Positions 6,521-20,996 of a stretch of DNA of 25,513 bases are shown in pieces. The first letter of the stretch is position 1. Each line of letters starts with the position of its first letter. The stretch lies in the IMG/VR virus record IMGVR_UViG_3300020335_000027, positions 1 through 25,513 of that record, one strand, 5' to 3'. This stretch comes from a virus. Its lineage: Duplodnaviria; Caudoviricetes. Under the pieces are notes generated by a model. The model was not told where the DNA came from. It worked only from the letters and a program-made list of their open reading frames with translations, and did no database searches. A program made the position numbers and the translations under genes.

Positions 6521-6907
6521 GTTCCATGAATAAAAAAGCTCTTTTTCTTTCTTAAATGCATCTATTTCCCATGGACGATCATTGTAATCGAGATGTCCGA
6601 ATGACTCTCCATTCCAAGTTTTTTCAAAGTCATCAAAGACTCCGTGAAGAACTTGCTGTACGTGTACCAGCTCGTGAAATATTGTAGTAACAATCTCATC
6701 GATAGTATTTTTTGTGTTGACTTCAATACCAGCAGTAGAGTCATCATCAAATCCATCGAAGTAGCCACAAGCATCATTCTGTGCTTTAAAACGAATTACT
6801 AGTTCATCAAGATCTGAAAGATCGAGAACCTCGTTCGCATGATTAACAATTGAGTCAATCATTTCTGGTTTAATCTTTTTTGGAAGATTGATTGTATCAA
6901 GAATCAT
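6512..6907 (-). CDS. Putative zinc metallopeptidase (HExxH)
   Basis: Motif TIFHELVHVQQ...Y.DRPWEIDAF. Start ATG 6907 with GAGG RBS. Confidence 0.8.
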   Translation of the reverse strand: MILDTINLPKKIKPEMIDSIVNHANEVLDLSDLDELVIRFKAQNDACGYFDGFDDDSTAGIEVNTKNTIDEIVTTIFHELVHVQQVLHGVFDDFEKTWNGESFGHLDYNDRPWEIDAFKKEKELFYSWNRI

Positions 6908-6911
6908 ATTA

Positions 6912-12228: not shown

Positions 12229-12338
12229 TGGCTCCAAGGGCAGGATTCGAACCTGCACGAATATAAATATTCTTTTGCTAAGACTATATATTCACAGCAT
12301 AAACAGTGCTGCGTGTCTACCTATTCCACCACCTTGGA
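12229..12338 (-). tRNA. Non-canonical tRNA-Asn(GTT) with a 38-nt variable arm
   Basis: Acceptor TCCAAGG/CCTTGGA-G-CCA. D-arm GTGGAATAGGTAGACAC. Anticodon arm CAGCA-CTGTTTA-TGCTG. T-arm GCAGG-TTCGAAT-CCTGC. Confidence 0.88.
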
Positions 12339-12344
12339 TTATTC

Positions 12345-13169
12345 TTATTTTTTAAGAGTATCAAGCGCACTAATCATGCGGGTCATACCAATTCCTCCAC
12401 CAACTCTTGGAAAGAAATCAAATTCAAGAAACTTTTCAAGTTCAGCTTCAACACGATCTTTACCAAATAACTGGTTAATAAGACCGGCATATTCACCATT
12501 TGAAATAGTGTGGAATGTGTCTCGCATTTGGTCTTTATCAGTGCTACGCTCAGCACTACCAATTGTTTCCATGCCACCAAGGATAACATCAATCTTCTTA
12601 CTTGTACCATCTTCATTTCTTGACATATTCCAAAATGGGCTTGTAAATTCTGGAAAGTCTGTAATCATACAACTATTAAAACCGGCTTGCATCGCTAGTT
12701 CGTGCTGCGCATCTAATTCAGTTGTAGCACTTAAGCCATAATGCTGTTGCCACTCTCTGTATGTTTTTTCTGTTAAATCATCGAATCCTAGATGGGCACA
12801 CAGTTGCCTTTCCATTACTCTGAGATCATTAATATCTCCTGGCATTTCGAATTCAAACATCGGGAAAATCGTGTCATGTCTGCCTGGAATTGCATTCGGT
12901 TCTTGTCTGTAAGAAGTCGAGATACAAAAAAACCCCTTCGAAGAGGGGCGAGTTAATAATTCATATTCCAACCACATTTGGCCAGTCTGCGGAAGAGGCC
13001 AAACTTGCCCTTCGTAGTTATATGTTGCAACATTTTCTGGATCTTCGCATGCTGCTAAAATGCTTAAACGGTTCTGCGTATGTACTTCATGGAAGCCTCT
13101 ATTTAAAAAAAATGACCTTAAAAGGTCAACGGCTTTTGTAAATTTTTGTGGATCAATCAATTGTGTCAC
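12345..13169 (-). CDS. Class IIb aaRS catalytic-domain-only protein (AsnRS2/archaeal-type asparagine synthetase-like)
   Basis: Motif 1 LRSFF...GFHEVHT, motif 2 STSYRQE....GRH...FPMFEFE, DVILGGMETIGSAER, and motif 3 GGGIGMTR. No N-terminal OB anticodon-binding domain. Likely GTG start at 13169 (GAGAGGA RBS). Confidence 0.88.
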   Translation of the reverse strand: MTQLIDPQKFTKAVDLLRSFFLNRGFHEVHTQNRLSILAACEDPENVATYNYEGQVWPLPQTGQMWLEYELLTRPSSKGFFCISTSYRQEPNAIPGRHDTIFPMFEFEMPGDINDLRVMERQLCAHLGFDDLTEKTYREWQQHYGLSATTELDAQHELAMQAGFNSCMITDFPEFTSPFWNMSRNEDGTSKKIDVILGGMETIGSAERSTDKDQMRDTFHTISNGEYAGLINQLFGKDRVEAELEKFLEFDFFPRVGGGIGMTRMISALDTLKK

Positions 13170-13206
13170 GAATATTTCCTCTCTATATGCAATGCTCAAT
13201 TGACAT

Positions 13207-13214
13207 TATTTATA
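13207..13214 (-). promoter_or_regulatory. T4-type late promoter TATAAATA (AsnRS-like gene plus tRNA)
   Basis: Exact TATAAATA in the intergenic gap. Confidence 0.6.
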
Positions 13215-13231: not shown

Positions 13232-13921
13232 CTAAGATAAAATATTTTTTATTTTCCATGGCGTAAAACATACTGATCCAAGGCTTACGTAATTAGCACC
13301 TCGATTAAAATAATTTTCAGCATCTTTTTTTGTAGTCACACCTCCACCAGCGATGATCGTTACATGAGGATATTTTGTTTTAATATATTCGATAATTCTA
13401 TTTGTATATGGTATTAATATTGTTCCGCTTTGGCCGCCATGAATAGAATATAAAGTATTACTAGCATGAATTTGACTGTATCCAGAATCAACTATTTGAT
13501 CAATAAGGCTTTCTGTTGCAGTAGGAGGTATTTTGCAAATACACCAATCTCTATTAGTTGATGGCCATAAGTCAAATCCTGGTAAACTAACTGCTCCAAC
13601 ATCTTTATCTAAATTAGGACAACTAATATTAATTTCTAAAGAAGTATTACTTGGAACAATGCTATCTAGATTAATCCAATCCCAATGATCAATAGCTGCT
13701 AAGCTTAAAACATCATTGGGACCAGATCTTTTTAGTCCTTCTTTTATTCCGGCATTCCTCAGACCTATTTTATTTCGCCATCCATCCTTAGTATAACGAA
13801 GTGTTTTTAAGATCTGAGGAAATAGCCCTGGGCGATTCTGATAAGTCCAGCTTCCAGTTACGCTAATCGCATTTGATAGTTTTATATAATTTCCAAATGG
13901 AGCAGCAATAAAATATTTCAT
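13232..13921 (-). CDS. pyrD: Dihydroorotate dehydrogenase-like FMN TIM-barrel protein
   Basis: NKIGLRNAG, EINISCPN catalytic Cys loop, NTL, GGQSG, IIAGGGV and GANYVSLGS. Shorter than cellular PyrD. Confidence 0.8.
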   Translation of the reverse strand: MKYFIAAPFGNYIKLSNAISVTGSWTYQNRPGLFPQILKTLRYTKDGWRNKIGLRNAGIKEGLKRSGPNDVLSLAAIDHWDWINLDSIVPSNTSLEINISCPNLDKDVGAVSLPGFDLWPSTNRDWCICKIPPTATESLIDQIVDSGYSQIHASNTLYSIHGGQSGTILIPYTNRIIEYIKTKYPHVTIIAGGGVTTKKDAENYFNRGANYVSLGSVCFTPWKIKNILS

Positions 13922-14744: not shown

Positions 14745-14820
14745 TGGTGTTCGGAGTAGGATTTGAACCTACGATCAACCCGTTATGAGCGGGGGGCTTT
14801 AACCGCTAAGCTATCCGAAC
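14745..14820 (-). tRNA. tRNA with CAT anticodon (probably Ile2/lysidine type; Met not excluded)
   Basis: Acceptor GTTCGGA/TCCGAAC-A-CCA, loop CTCATAA, T-loop TTCAAAT. Has C4:G69 and lacks initiator features (no C1xA72 mismatch, no GGG/CCC). Confidence 0.88.
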
Positions 14821-17201: not shown

Positions 17202-18218
17202 TTAATCTTGTTTATGGATCGTGCAATGATGTACATCGATTCTATGATGATCGTCATCGCCCTGATCTGGTAGTGTATGATAATGATGTGTAGTATGCGA
17301 ATATTTTAACTGTGTTCCAGGTGGAAGTACAGTTTCTGCTTCAGCAGCATGTGTGTTACCTTCTACGCCACTCATATGAATACCTTTATCACTAGCTTTA
17401 GCGTCAATGTGAAGCATATGTTTAGTTGTTTTACCTACATATTGAGTATCCGTATTTTTATTTAAAGGTCTAACATGCTCATTCTCGTGTCCGGAATGAA
17501 TTGCAAATCCAGCTGCGGTGTGCACATCATGAGTACCACAAACATGAGCCGATGAACGAACAACACCATCTGTATGTTTTTCTGCATGTTTGATAGCTTG
17601 TACAAATGAAGGATGAACACCAGAATAAAGATGTACCCTATGGCCAAGAGGTTTAGCTGCGGTTTTAAGATGTTCTGCAGTGTCTTTATCTTGACCAACA
17701 AGTGCATGTGGATGGTACTCACCCAATTTTTTATTTTCTGTCTTATGTTTGTGCTCAGCGATGTAATGTCGAGCTATCTGACTAGACGCCCATTTTTTAC
17801 CATCGCCAACTGTGTCAGATTTTCCAGTTGTAAAATGACGAAAAGCTTTGTGTTGCGCTGGTGTCATTTTTTGTTCAAGTTTACTTGATAAAGAGCCTAC
17901 TTCTTCTATGTTAGATCCACGATGTGCTGTGCTGAGTTCATGACCAGTTTCACCGTAAATATTTTCATTAAATTGAGCATCATCCATATGTGTTCTTTTC
18001 TTATTATCATGTAAGTCATTGCGAGGTTCGTGATGTTGATGATCGACCCGTTTTTCTGTTTTTGCTTGCTTAAAACCGGTAGTATCAAATCCTTCAAATA
18101 TACCTCTTTCAATTCTCTTTGTTCTAGGAGTTTTGTCACCTATAGCTTTACTGAGAGTAACTACACCATTGCTCATATAAAAGCCCTGATCTTTTATAAA
18201 TGAGTTGAATCTTTCCAT
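17202..18218 (-). CDS. His-rich ADP-ribosyltransferase-fold protein (Alt/VIP2-like), paralog D
   Basis: LYSGV / HVCGT / EAETVLPPG occupy the R, STS and ExE positions. 40 His in 338 aa by hand count. Confidence 0.7.
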   Translation of the reverse strand: MERFNSFIKDQGFYMSNGVVTLSKAIGDKTPRTKRIERGIFEGFDTTGFKQAKTEKRVDHQHHEPRNDLHDNKKRTHMDDAQFNENIYGETGHELSTAHRGSNIEEVGSLSSKLEQKMTPAQHKAFRHFTTGKSDTVGDGKKWASSQIARHYIAEHKHKTENKKLGEYHPHALVGQDKDTAEHLKTAAKPLGHRVHLYSGVHPSFVQAIKHAEKHTDGVVRSSAHVCGTHDVHTAAGFAIHSGHENEHVRPLNKNTDTQYVGKTTKHMLHIDAKASDKGIHMSGVEGNTHAAEAETVLPPGTQLKYSHTTHHYHTLPDQGDDDHHRIDVHHCTIHKQD

Positions 18219-19141
18219 TACTTACTCCCGTCGTGATGAATTTCAAAATGATCAACATGATGTTCTGTAGTATGTTCATCATAACTGCCATCCATATTTC
18301 TAGAAGCATGTTTGACGTAGTGCTTTGTAGTACCGATATGTTTTAATTTATCTTTAACTAAAACTTCCCTCTCTTCTTTCCATGTGCTATTATGTTCAGT
18401 ACTAAGAACTTTGTCTTTCGGTTTTGCATGTATGCACATGTAATGATGTTTACCATATGGCTGTTTTACTCCATCAGGACCTTTAGTCTTTTTAGCTGCA
18501 AAGGTCTGTCCAACATCTTTATCTAACGTAGTAGATACGTGGCCCCCACCTGGATGAATTATACCGTCTTTCGATTTTTTTACTGCTTTGCTAACTCTAG
18601 AAGATACTCCAGCCCATAGCTTGAAATGTCCTCCCATAGGATGATAAGCATCACTCAAATGTTTATGCATTACATCATGCCTAGCTCTTTCCTTGTCATC
18701 AGGAATTCCATTCATGCCATCCCAATGGTGGTCTGGAACTTTTCTACGAGACTTTAATGTGTGCTTTTCGATTAAATGTTTATTAAATCTTTCTGAAAAT
18801 CGCGTATATTCTTTGATAGAGTGTTTTTGATCACGGCTTAAAGGTTTTTTCTCTTGATGCTTTTCATGATGCTTCAATAATTGATCTGACTTTTCTTCAA
18901 CATGTTCGTCATTTTCTATTTCATCATCATCATCATGAATCGATTTATGACTCCAATTCAGCCAGCTTTTGTTTTTAGCCATATGTTTGACATCAGAAGC
19001 ATCTTCTTTAACAACTTTTTTAGGCTTATTGATACTTTTAGGTTTATCACCATGGCCTAAAATATCAGTGAATACAGCAACGCCGTCATCATCAATATAA
19101 TAACCTTCAGCTTCTTTTGAATGCTGTTTAAATGTTTTCAT
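18218..19141 (-). CDS. His-rich ADP-ribosyltransferase-fold protein, paralog C
   Basis: MKTFKQ leader, then SIKEYT..SERFNKHL, LWAGV, HVSTTL and EEREVL. Confidence 0.72.
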   Translation of the reverse strand: MKTFKQHSKEAEGYYIDDDGVAVFTDILGHGDKPKSINKPKKVVKEDASDVKHMAKNKSWLNWSHKSIHDDDDEIENDEHVEEKSDQLLKHHEKHQEKKPLSRDQKHSIKEYTRFSERFNKHLIEKHTLKSRRKVPDHHWDGMNGIPDDKERARHDVMHKHLSDAYHPMGGHFKLWAGVSSRVSKAVKKSKDGIIHPGGGHVSTTLDKDVGQTFAAKKTKGPDGVKQPYGKHHYMCIHAKPKDKVLSTEHNSTWKEEREVLVKDKLKHIGTTKHYVKHASRNMDGSYDEHTTEHHVDHFEIHHDGSK

Positions 19142-19178
19142 GATTCGTGCCTTTTATGAATGATCCAAATCTTTCCAT
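19128..19178 (-). pseudogene. 16-codon remnant of the paralog D N-terminus (MERFGSFIKGTNHENI)
   Basis: ATCTTTCCATTACTTA is present at both 18209-18224 and 19169-19184. The translation matches MERFNSFIK. Confidence 0.7.
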
Positions 19179-19181
19179 TAC

Positions 19182-20117
19182 TTATTTCCTTTGTAATGAA
19201 TTTCGAACCGTCGTCAGGTTCTTTTTTAAAAAATGTAAATATTTATTTTTTGGTTTACTCTCGTCGTGATGAATTTCGAAATGATCAACATGATGTCGGA
19301 TGTCGCCTGTGGTATAGCCAGTCTTTTCGTAGTGTGTTGTAGTGCCTATATGTTTTAATTTATCTTTAACTAAAACTTCTCTCTCCTCTGGGTGCGAGCC
19401 ATGTTTTTCAGTACTAAGACCCTTGTCGTGCGGTTTTACATGTATACACATGTAATGATGTTGGCCCGTATGGTTCCCCCAGTCAGTCTTTTTAGTTGCA
19501 AATTGGTGAGCGATGTGTTTGGCCAGTGAAGTAGATACATGTCCTCCGCCTGGATGAATTATACCATCTTTTGATTTTCTTACTGCTTCGCTAACTCTAG
19601 AAGATACTCCAGCCCATAGTTTATGATGTCCTCCAAGAGAATGATAAGCCCCGCTCAAATGTTCGTGCATTTCATCATGCGCAGCTCTTTCCTTGTCATC
19701 AGGACGTCCTTTCGTTTTGGCCCAATGATTGTCTGACTCTTCTCTACGCCAACGCGTGCCTGCATGCTTTTCGATTAAATGTTTATTAAATCTTTTTGAA
19801 TCATTTGAATACGATTTTATCGCTTTTTTTTGAGCATTACTTAAAGGATTTTCTTCTTGATGCTTTTGATGATGCTGCAATAATTGATGAGACTTTTCTT
19901 CAACGTGTTTATCATTACCTATTTTTGACCAATTGGTGTTTTTAGCCATATCTTCGACGTCAGAAGCATCTTCTTTAACAACTTTTTTAGGCTTATCACT
20001 ACTTCTAGACTTATCGCCGTGTCCTAAAATATCAGTGAATACGGCAACGCCGTTATCATCAATATAATAACCTTTATCTTCTTTTGATTCTTTTGAATAC
20101 TGTTTAAACGTCTTCAT
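19182..20117 (-). CDS. His-rich ADP-ribosyltransferase-fold protein, paralog B
   Basis: MKTFKQ leader, then AIKSYS..SKRFNKHL, LWAGV, HVSTSL and EEREVL. Shares long identical DNA blocks with paralog C. Confidence 0.72.
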   Translation of the reverse strand: MKTFKQYSKESKEDKGYYIDDNGVAVFTDILGHGDKSRSSDKPKKVVKEDASDVEDMAKNTNWSKIGNDKHVEEKSHQLLQHHQKHQEENPLSNAQKKAIKSYSNDSKRFNKHLIEKHAGTRWRREESDNHWAKTKGRPDDKERAAHDEMHEHLSGAYHSLGGHHKLWAGVSSRVSEAVRKSKDGIIHPGGGHVSTSLAKHIAHQFATKKTDWGNHTGQHHYMCIHVKPHDKGLSTEKHGSHPEEREVLVKDKLKHIGTTTHYEKTGYTTGDIRHHVDHFEIHHDESKPKNKYLHFLKKNLTTVRNSLQRK

Positions 20118-20899
20118 GATTTGTGTCTTTTAAAGTGATCTATAATATGTCTGCGACCTACACCACCTAGGTGTCTTGTAGTTCCTACATGTTTCCATAC
20201 ACTATGCGGTTTAATAGTAACTTCGTGTTCATCTGTATAATTTGGATCAGGATACACGGCGGTATGCGGATGAACATGACACACCTCATCGTCCTTATCG
20301 ATATGATAAGCAGCATAATGCAGATTATCTCCACTTATATCAGTATGCTTTTTTAAGTCTGCAAATTGTGTAGCGCCTGCAGGATGAACTGAAGCAGATA
20401 TGTGTGTATGCGACGTATGCAATTTGTCAGGAGAAGCTTTCATATTCTTATGAACTCTATTACTTACTCCAGCATATGCCACAAAACTAGTACCAGCTTT
20501 TCGATAGCCTTTCATCATATCATCGTGAACACTCATATCTTCTTCTGGATGAGGTAATGGTTTGTTTTGATGTTTTGCAATTAAGTTTTGATTGAGTTCA
20601 CGAGAGCCGGCTGAATAGCTTTTAATACCGGCCTTAGTTTTATCACTTAGCTTTGGTGATGTACGCTCTAGTTTGTCATGAATACTATCTGCGGTTAGAT
20701 CATGTTGATGATTACCGGTTTTATGATGAAGAAATAGAGGATTATGCTTTTTACCATCTATTTCTGGTCCAAATTCTTCTGAAACATTTTTGCTATTTCG
20801 AGGTCTATGATTACCAATAAGATCAAGAATGACAGTTACGCCATCCTTGTTAATATAATACCCTTTGTCTTCTTTTGAATGCTGTTTAAACGTCTTCAT
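20114..20899 (-). CDS. His-rich ADP-ribosyltransferase-fold protein, paralog A
   Basis: Start moved to MKTFKQ (ATG 20899). GIKSYSAGSRELNQNL, AYAGV, HISAS and DEHEVTI. Confidence 0.72.
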   Translation of the reverse strand: MKTFKQHSKEDKGYYINKDGVTVILDLIGNHRPRNSKNVSEEFGPEIDGKKHNPLFLHHKTGNHQHDLTADSIHDKLERTSPKLSDKTKAGIKSYSAGSRELNQNLIAKHQNKPLPHPEEDMSVHDDMMKGYRKAGTSFVAYAGVSNRVHKNMKASPDKLHTSHTHISASVHPAGATQFADLKKHTDISGDNLHYAAYHIDKDDEVCHVHPHTAVYPDPNYTDEHEVTIKPHSVWKHVGTTRHLGGVGRRHIIDHFKRHKS

Positions 20900-20996
20900 C
20901 TTCGTCGCCATCCTCGCCATACGGATATTTAAAATGGATAGGTTCAAGGATAACTGCTACACCGTCGTCATCAATATAAAAGCCTTCTTCTTCCAT
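20886..20996 (-). CDS. 36-aa acidic peptide consisting of the shared leader motif (MEEEGFYIDDDGVAVILEPIHFKYPYGEDGDEDEDV)
   Basis: Read by hand. AGGA RBS; first ORF after the late promoter. Confidence 0.7.
   Translation of the reverse strand: MEEEGFYIDDDGVAVILEPIHFKYPYGEDGDEDEDV

Follow-up and report, generated by a model that had tools for sequence, protein, structure and literature searches.

Asparaginyl-tRNA synthetase (AsnRS; PDB IDs: 8H53, 2XTI, 1X54; TIGR00457) is one of the closest described relatives of the phage enzyme analyzed here, sharing about 20% identity with it over the catalytic domain; the phage enzyme, however, is devoid of the OB domain, and its family differs further from AsnRS in new conserved residues (C41, N181, K192 and R255) and in a pyrimidine gene context. 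The absence of an anticodon-binding domain is shared with AS-AR/AsnRS2 (PDB IDs: 3P8T, 3REX; PRK06462). In contrast with AS-AR and AsnA, whose families it does not match, the enzyme has an Asn-type rather than an Asp-type pocket, is predicted to consume asparagine and, in phages, has a tRNA linked to it. The same fold is found in EpmA/GenX (PDB ID: 3A5Y), which, unlike the enzyme, derives from LysRS.

On the metabolic side, CarAB, PyrB and PyrC make the product predicted for the enzyme and feed the same downstream PyrD, PyrE and PyrF, but they draw on glutamine, bicarbonate, two ATP and aspartate, whereas the enzyme is predicted to use asparagine, CO2 and one ATP within an unrelated single fold; outside the Patescibacteria the two distributions are nearly complementary. 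TsaC/Sua5 convert an amino acid, CO2 and ATP into a carbamoyl-adenylate, as proposed here, yet their fold is unrelated and their product is moved to A37 of tRNA instead of being cyclized. Staphylococcal Fem ligases provide a case of a tRNA reserved for non-ribosomal use, in the form of a non-proteinogenic tRNA-Gly, in contrast with which the use proposed for the phage tRNA is nucleotide synthesis. With the tRNA-Asn of the non-discriminating AspRS (ND-AspRS)/GatCAB route, as described in PMC1635274, the phage tRNA has GUU, G73 and U1-A72 in common; unlike ordinary bacterial tRNA-Asn, it has a Leu-type body, a long variable arm, an extra D-loop base and, mostly, a pyrimidine at position 37. A full-text search, with most subscription journals outside its scope, returned no paper on the enzyme-tRNA pair, on this tRNA class or on an enzyme converting asparagine to dihydroorotate.

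The window is a whole virus record of 25.5 kb (25,513 nt), in which Pfam identifies T4-like genes such as gp32. Its minus strand carries a gene resembling PyrD (dihydroorotate dehydrogenase, DHODH) directly upstream of the enzyme (positions 13232-13921; Pfam DHO_dh, 41 bits above the cut-off), followed by a T4-type late promoter motif, TATAAATA (13207-13214), the remnant of a leader hairpin (13194-13204) and a Shine-Dalgarno-like AGAGAGGA (13177-13184). The enzyme gene (12345-13169) runs from a GTG start at 13169 to a stop at 12345 and encodes a 274-aa class IIb synthetase catalytic core, predicted to be dihydroorotate-forming; a TTG at 13199 is unlikely to serve for initiation, as the homologues begin at the same residue as the GTG-initiated frame. 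A 6-nt spacer, GAATAA (12339-12344), separates the stop codon from a 110-nt tRNA gene (12229-12338) with an anticodon GUU at 12304-12302 and an encoded CCA, and this spacing suggests that both are co-transcribed. The nearest other tRNA lies at 14745, 2.4 kb away. These results confirm what the preliminary description had reported of the late promoter, the core without an OB domain and the isolated 110-nt tRNA with a GTT anticodon, to which we add U37, a Leu-type D-arm and the DHODH-like gene directly upstream. Elsewhere on the minus strand, the window contains a terminator-like hairpin with a U-tail inside the enzyme coding region (12949-12932) and four tandem His/Lys-rich open reading frames (17202-20947; 277-338 aa) that resemble one another at their starts and lack any Pfam match.

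The sole Pfam match of the enzyme is tRNA-synt_2. Structure and profile comparisons, together with alignment, place it in the class IIb catalytic fold with motifs 1-3 present, whereas in an alignment with full-length AsnRS and AspRS the OB anticodon-binding domain at the N-terminus is missing; no conserved neighbor able to supply such a domain was seen across the enzyme loci examined. Its score against the AsnRS model TIGR00457 is 21.4 bits, for a cut-off of 342.6, and it stays far under all synthetase cut-offs. As judged from alignments rather than from a ligand-bound model, the pocket is AsnRS-type (L67/E68, E106, E108 and R208), these residues presumably being the Glu without a Lys after the SxQ motif, the motif 2 acids and the Arg of the GxxR strand. 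L67 aligns with the AspRS Lys at the carboxylate-binding position, so that the Asp-type Lys is absent; AS-AR keeps this Lys in its carboxylate-binding role. The EpmA/GenX model TIGR00462 was not among the matches listed for the enzyme, and efp was absent from the 60 neighbor clusters scanned around it. Cellular homologues share the active-site residues of the phage enzyme. There are, in addition, residues specific to the phage clade, most of which are kept by close viral homologues without the tRNA, and a FastTree phylogeny joins the marine phage enzymes in one group (support 88) with the tRNA-less members nested inside. The family belongs to PHROG 29758 and includes the T4-GC 194 proteins of cyanophages P-SSM2 and P-SSM7; PMC3037559 gives this gene only as 'tRNA ligase' and reports one tRNA for P-SSM2. 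We estimate that about 1,300 IMG/VR stretches carry the enzyme gene.

Among 596 viral homologues, the best 80, which are 74-94% identical to the window enzyme, were inspected, and the tRNA is present at 75 (72 parsed, 2 recovered by a second parse and 1 cut by the contig end), mostly 4-11 nt past the enzyme stop, a position that stays constant while other neighbors change. The tRNA is missing at the other five loci (L004, L007, L020, L076 and L078). A downstream scan open to any anticodon found every adjacent tRNA to be GUU. In the reverse direction, a pattern built on the D-arm and anticodon of the family hit 119 viral loci, 117 with the enzyme upstream and 2 with less than 60 nt of contig upstream. 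Both P-SSM2 and P-SSM7 carry the pair, and in another phage an enzyme of 40% identity has the tRNA 6 nt downstream. The suggestion of a functional module thus finds support, the linkage being strong both ways within the T4-like marine clade and recurring with a distant enzyme.

The co-occurrence is nevertheless incomplete: none of 71 cellular loci, with enzymes of 55-62% identity, has a long-arm tRNA beside the gene, and the cells that encode the enzyme have only ordinary tRNA-Asn where any was found. The tRNA is also absent at both huge phages and at six of the seven distant viral loci inspected (nine fetched). A second D-arm pattern returned 134 loci, of which 99 parse as long-arm GUU tRNAs; the enzyme is present at only 2 of these, and is lacking in the available flanks of the other 97, 56 of which offer at least 400 nt upstream. 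Nine loci of this second lineage were viewed more widely, and none has the enzyme within up to 10 kb, while at five of them an ordinary tRNA-Asn adjoins the long-arm tRNA. The tRNAs of the second lineage (L557-L565; L423-L556) show U1-A72, G73, U37 and C38 and sit in tRNA/tmRNA clusters of large phage contigs, often beside a tmRNA whose tag starts ANNNN. Separately, two patterns found no tRNA-Asn(GUU) in the near-complete carrier genomes G001 and G004, which an intron or a variant may explain.

The window tRNA scores 49.5 bits with the Rfam model and escapes ARAGORN, which often misses or misnames tRNAs of this Leu-bodied GUU class. It combines U1-A72, G73 and U37 with a 38-nt variable region and an extra D-loop base, and its D-arm is that of the window's own tRNA-Leu(UAA). 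Leu-type traits in the GUU tRNA thus comprise the D-arm, A15-U48 and the long arm, whereas the A73 discriminator and a Leu anticodon are replaced by G73 and GUU. Across 100 distinct genes of the class, U1-A72, G73 and the extra D-loop base are invariant (100/100), the variable region ranges from 12 to 41 nt, and 77 genes have U at position 37, 18 have A and 5 have C, the purine being gone in 82; U37 and the rare non-U33 bases are poor for decoding. Ordinary tRNA-Asn traits, namely a short variable loop and a D-loop without base 20a, are absent, and A37 persists in only the 18 noted above. A distant enzyme-linked tRNA (L420:1558-1642) has A1-U72 in place of U1-A72.

Covariation, proposed as a check in the preliminary description, is extensive: in an alignment of 30 tRNA genes, 99.9% of the cells pair and compensatory changes occur at 20 of 23 pairs. 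Acceptor pairs 2-7 vary and covary freely, pair 1-72 alone in the acceptor never changes, and no private identity set is visible in the acceptor stem or the arm of the aligned tRNAs. From sequence, the GUU molecule is best described as a real tRNA that unites a Leu body with identity signals used in the indirect route to Asn-tRNA. G73 is listed as an antideterminant for LeuRS and, with the anticodon, as a signal for AspRS (PMC9976931), and U1-A72 is the signal for GatCAB (PMC1635274). Among the tRNAs tested there, which included no class II body, an extra D-loop base lowers GatCAB amidation about 10-fold for tRNA-Asn and 120-fold for tRNA-Asp (PMC1635274), and a steric clash with GatCAB has been modeled for such a base, again with no class II body among those tested (PMC2811023). 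The fixed GUU is not explicable by the linked enzyme, because the latter has no anticodon domain with which to read it.

Several arrangements connect the enzyme with pyrimidine synthesis. The DHODH-like gene that precedes it in the window is of the short type and forms one sequence cluster with other phage copies and with the pyrD of Bandiella, where the gene order is enzyme-pyrF-pyrE-pyrD, an order present at three loci that are Rickettsiales-like or alphaproteobacterial. In Aureispira, pyrD or pyrE-F lies near the enzyme at four loci, phage loci L047 and L056 read pyrD-enzyme-tRNA-pyrE, and of two longer relatives of the enzyme, each a single-member cluster, one is a fusion with DHODH and the other a fusion with OMP decarboxylase (PyrF). 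No pyr gene lies within 4 kb at 69 of the 80 viral loci and neither P-SSM2 nor P-SSM7 has a pyrD match, and at such loci host enzymes would therefore finish the pathway.

Three observations on the same neighborhoods deserve mention. A 133-aa PyrE-like protein (L021:57-455; relatives at L333-L411) is common to marine phages and the Bandiella operon; the L021 copy has no Pfam or NCBIfam match, and the enzyme lies within 10 kb at 25 of 80 such loci. At the Patescibacteria loci (L092-L164), dus is upstream of the enzyme in 18 and dnaX is near it in 18, with L131 reading dus-enzyme-pyrE-dnaX. Some loci also carry permuted tmRNAs and an ALA-synthase-like gene, which we take as a hint of alphaproteobacterial phage hosts.

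Fifty of the 71 carrier genomes, most of them incomplete MAGs, were scored for pyr genes. Transcarbamylases appeared in two (one ornithine enzyme and one true pyrB) and carB in one. No pyrC scored above the cut-off in any of the 50, nor was an E. coli-type pyrC found in any of five, and the three best pyrC matches proved to be an allantoinase, a dihydropyrimidinase and a relative without assignment. In two family samples, pyrB was found in 0/2 and 0/3 carriers versus 76/79 and 76/98 non-carriers, contrasts that represent only two or three independent events. Outside the Patescibacteria, the carriers keep pyrD (15/15) and pyrF (11/13). Patescibacteria carriers, assigned partly from the tree, have pyrD in 16/40 and pyrF in 15/37, and their pyrD is not enriched relative to non-carriers (86/246, scored at a different E-value limit); neither pyrD nor pyrF was found in the single-contig carriers G001 and G003. 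In the Patescibacteria, an additional function of the enzyme is possible. Canonical AsnRS also occurs in carrier G004 and was not found in some carrier cells, and gatB is present in all five carrier cells tested. For the Midichloriaceae, PMC10847448 describes nucleotide synthesis as absent 'besides few genes'.

The regulatory regions were compared across homologues. By itself, TATAAATA is not above chance in the window (6 occurrences for 4.5 expected); in the 120 nt that precede the enzyme gene, [AT]ATAAATA is found at 15 of 64 distinct homologue starts versus 54 of 3125 background windows, and we read it as a promoter on the assumption that the T4 late consensus applies. A run of at least seven T within 80 nt upstream marks 45 of 61 distinct viral leaders, compared to 6 of 496 other open reading frames. 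Among the cellular enzyme genes, 46 of 71 have a terminator-like element in front of them, compared to 19 of 619, often together with a short leader open reading frame of unbiased composition (38/48), and Asn stands at codon 3 or 4 of the enzyme in 57 of 71 cellular genes. UTP-sensing attenuators of pyrBI and pyrE resemble these U-rich leaders, and the resemblance would lend the pyrimidine link independent support. At L008, L010, L015, L046, L047 and other loci, the late promoter is followed by a hairpin with a U-run in its loop, a second U-run and the ribosome site, an attenuator-like arrangement of which the window keeps a hairpin remnant without the U-run; by analogy, this phage leader is a candidate UTP-sensing attenuator of a late gene.

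A further copy of TATAAATA lies antisense in the variable arm of the window tRNA (12262-12269, plus strand), directed back into the enzyme gene. Among the arms of at least 27 nt, 56 of 59 keep TATTTA on the 3' strand, the opposite DNA strand of which is the late-promoter core TAAATA pointing into the enzyme gene, while the partner strand of the arm varies with wobble and is never TAAATA; a GYAA/RCAA-type apex is likewise found in 56 of these 59. In the other 41 of the 100 tRNAs the arm is shorter and the motif is missing. The motif may be a promoter on the antisense strand or may serve in RNA binding.

Taken together, these data suggest that the enzyme is an AsnRS-derived core that has likely ceased to charge tRNA, and its role at the entry to pyrimidine synthesis is probable. 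Since the pyrB, pyrC and carB steps are all missing in the carriers, the product should be dihydroorotate; asparagine supplies every ring atom but C2, which points to a reaction of asparagine, CO2 and ATP through a carbamoyl-adenylate, a chemistry to which we give somewhat better than even chances. On the basis of gene context, atom mapping and the analogy with TsaC/Sua5, the alpha-amino group of asparagine would take up CO2, the carbamate would be adenylated in the class II site, and the side-chain amide would close the ring to yield dihydroorotate, AMP and PPi. PyrD, PyrE and PyrF of the phage or its host, neighbors of the enzyme at several loci, would then complete UMP, and the U-rich leader seen in relatives would tune expression to UTP.

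For the tRNA, a part in asparagine supply has slightly less than an even chance. Host non-discriminating AspRS would read GUU and G73, GatCAB would read U1-A72, and the resulting Asn-tRNA would release asparagine to the enzyme without decoding, a route suggested by the identity elements and presuming hosts short of free asparagine. The combined reading, in which the enzyme takes free asparagine into pyrimidine synthesis and the tRNA is its non-decoding source via host AspRS and GatCAB, is our preferred one, held with less than even confidence. More tentative still is its most specific form, that of a one-step dihydroorotate synthase acting on asparagine and CO2 that marine phages have paired with a ribosome-avoiding, Leu-bodied tRNA so as to turn AspRS and GatCAB into an asparagine source for viral nucleotides. 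Most carrier cells live as symbionts, predators or heterotrophs; they could take up asparagine from outside, and would therefore not need the helper tRNA. Several results count against the preferred reading: pyrD is not enriched in Patescibacteria carriers, and G001 and G003 show neither pyrD nor pyrF; pyrB is present in one carrier and carAB in one; most carriers are incomplete MAGs, and the family contrasts reflect few independent events; most viral loci have no pyr gene within 4 kb, and both cyanophages are without a pyrD match; the D-loop antideterminant of GatCAB is present in 100/100 tRNAs, and the L420 tRNA has A1-U72; and either member of the pair also occurs with its partner absent from the vicinity. 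Among the roles raised in the preliminary description, that of aminoacyl donor in non-ribosomal transfer comes closest to the preferred reading, although the pyrimidine link was absent there.

Two alternatives retain the pyrimidine-entry enzyme and assign the tRNA differently. It might have a separate job, as a nuclease-resistant or decoy tRNA-Asn or as a translation supplement while the enzyme drains asparagine; every stem shows the covariation of a functional tRNA, changes in the anticodon loop could give protection from nucleases, and the second lineage places the same tRNA type in tRNA/tmRNA clusters away from the enzyme. This proposal, which we consider unlikely, gives no account of a tRNA that stays 4-11 nt behind one gene amid changing neighbors, U37 and the rare non-U33 are ill suited to decoding, and five of the nine wider loci keep an ordinary tRNA-Asn alongside. 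A direct co-substrate, with asparagine esterified to the tRNA throughout activation and closure or with the enzyme loading or unloading it, would agree with the tight linkage across 40-100% identity, the intact class II motifs and the phage-clade-specific residues of the enzyme; it too is improbable, given that cellular homologues have the same active-site residues with, where any was found, ordinary tRNA-Asn alone, that close viral homologues lacking the tRNA retain most phage-specific residues, and that acceptor pairs 2-7 are not conserved.

The orthogonal pair put forward in the preliminary description, in which an enzyme blind to the anticodon would attach asparagine to its dedicated tRNA for translation and recognize it by the long arm, draws on the AsnRS-type pocket and fold, the matching amino acid, the linkage, and the failure to find canonical AsnRS in some carrier cells. 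It fares poorly, and we regard it as quite unlikely: arms of 12-41 nt and free pairs 2-7 leave identity conserved only at U1-A72 and G73, GUU is kept though unread, purine 37 is mostly lost, no cellular locus has the tRNA, G004 also encodes canonical AsnRS and gatB accompanies the enzyme in every cell tested, and the pyr fusions, operons, U-rich leaders and the pyrB/pyrC/carB gap are left unexplained. A further reading makes this core without an anticodon domain an AS-AR/AsnA-like asparagine synthetase or, as anticipated in the preliminary description, an amidase that converts Asp to Asn on tRNA and bypasses GatCAB. The AsnRS-type pocket speaks against it, as do other results: PRK06462 models give no match at an E-value of 0.001 while control AsnRS and AspRS do match, the profile score is 30 bits to 3p8t versus 61 to AsnRS, and the Lys at the AspRS carboxylate-binding position is lacking, all of which makes this reading very improbable. 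Finally, the 3' position of the tRNA-like element and the antisense TAAATA conserved in very long arms would suit a cis-acting element or a processing site at the 3' end of the enzyme mRNA, or a mere carrier of an antisense late promoter; such a regulator, also anticipated earlier, is hardly credible in view of the invariant GUU, G73 and U1-A72, the shorter arms without the motif and the same tRNA type found away from the gene in an enzyme-free lineage.

If the preferred reading is correct, the enzyme would constitute a new de novo entry into pyrimidines, with one enzyme in place of three; apparent pathway gaps in symbionts and Bacteroidota would be closed, a widespread marine phage gene annotated as 'tRNA ligase' would be reannotated, and the only tRNA of cyanophage P-SSM2 would gain a purpose, as a metabolic shuttle rather than a decoder. 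Should the chemistry differ, the GUU tRNAs with a Leu body and U37 still form a conserved class. Growth of P-SSM2 or P-SSM7 on Prochlorococcus offers a cultured system in which the idea is directly testable. For the tRNA-Asn of P-SSM2, the RefSeq annotation (6825-6910) appears to be about 2 kb off: the real gene follows the 'tRNA ligase' at L081:4813-4900.
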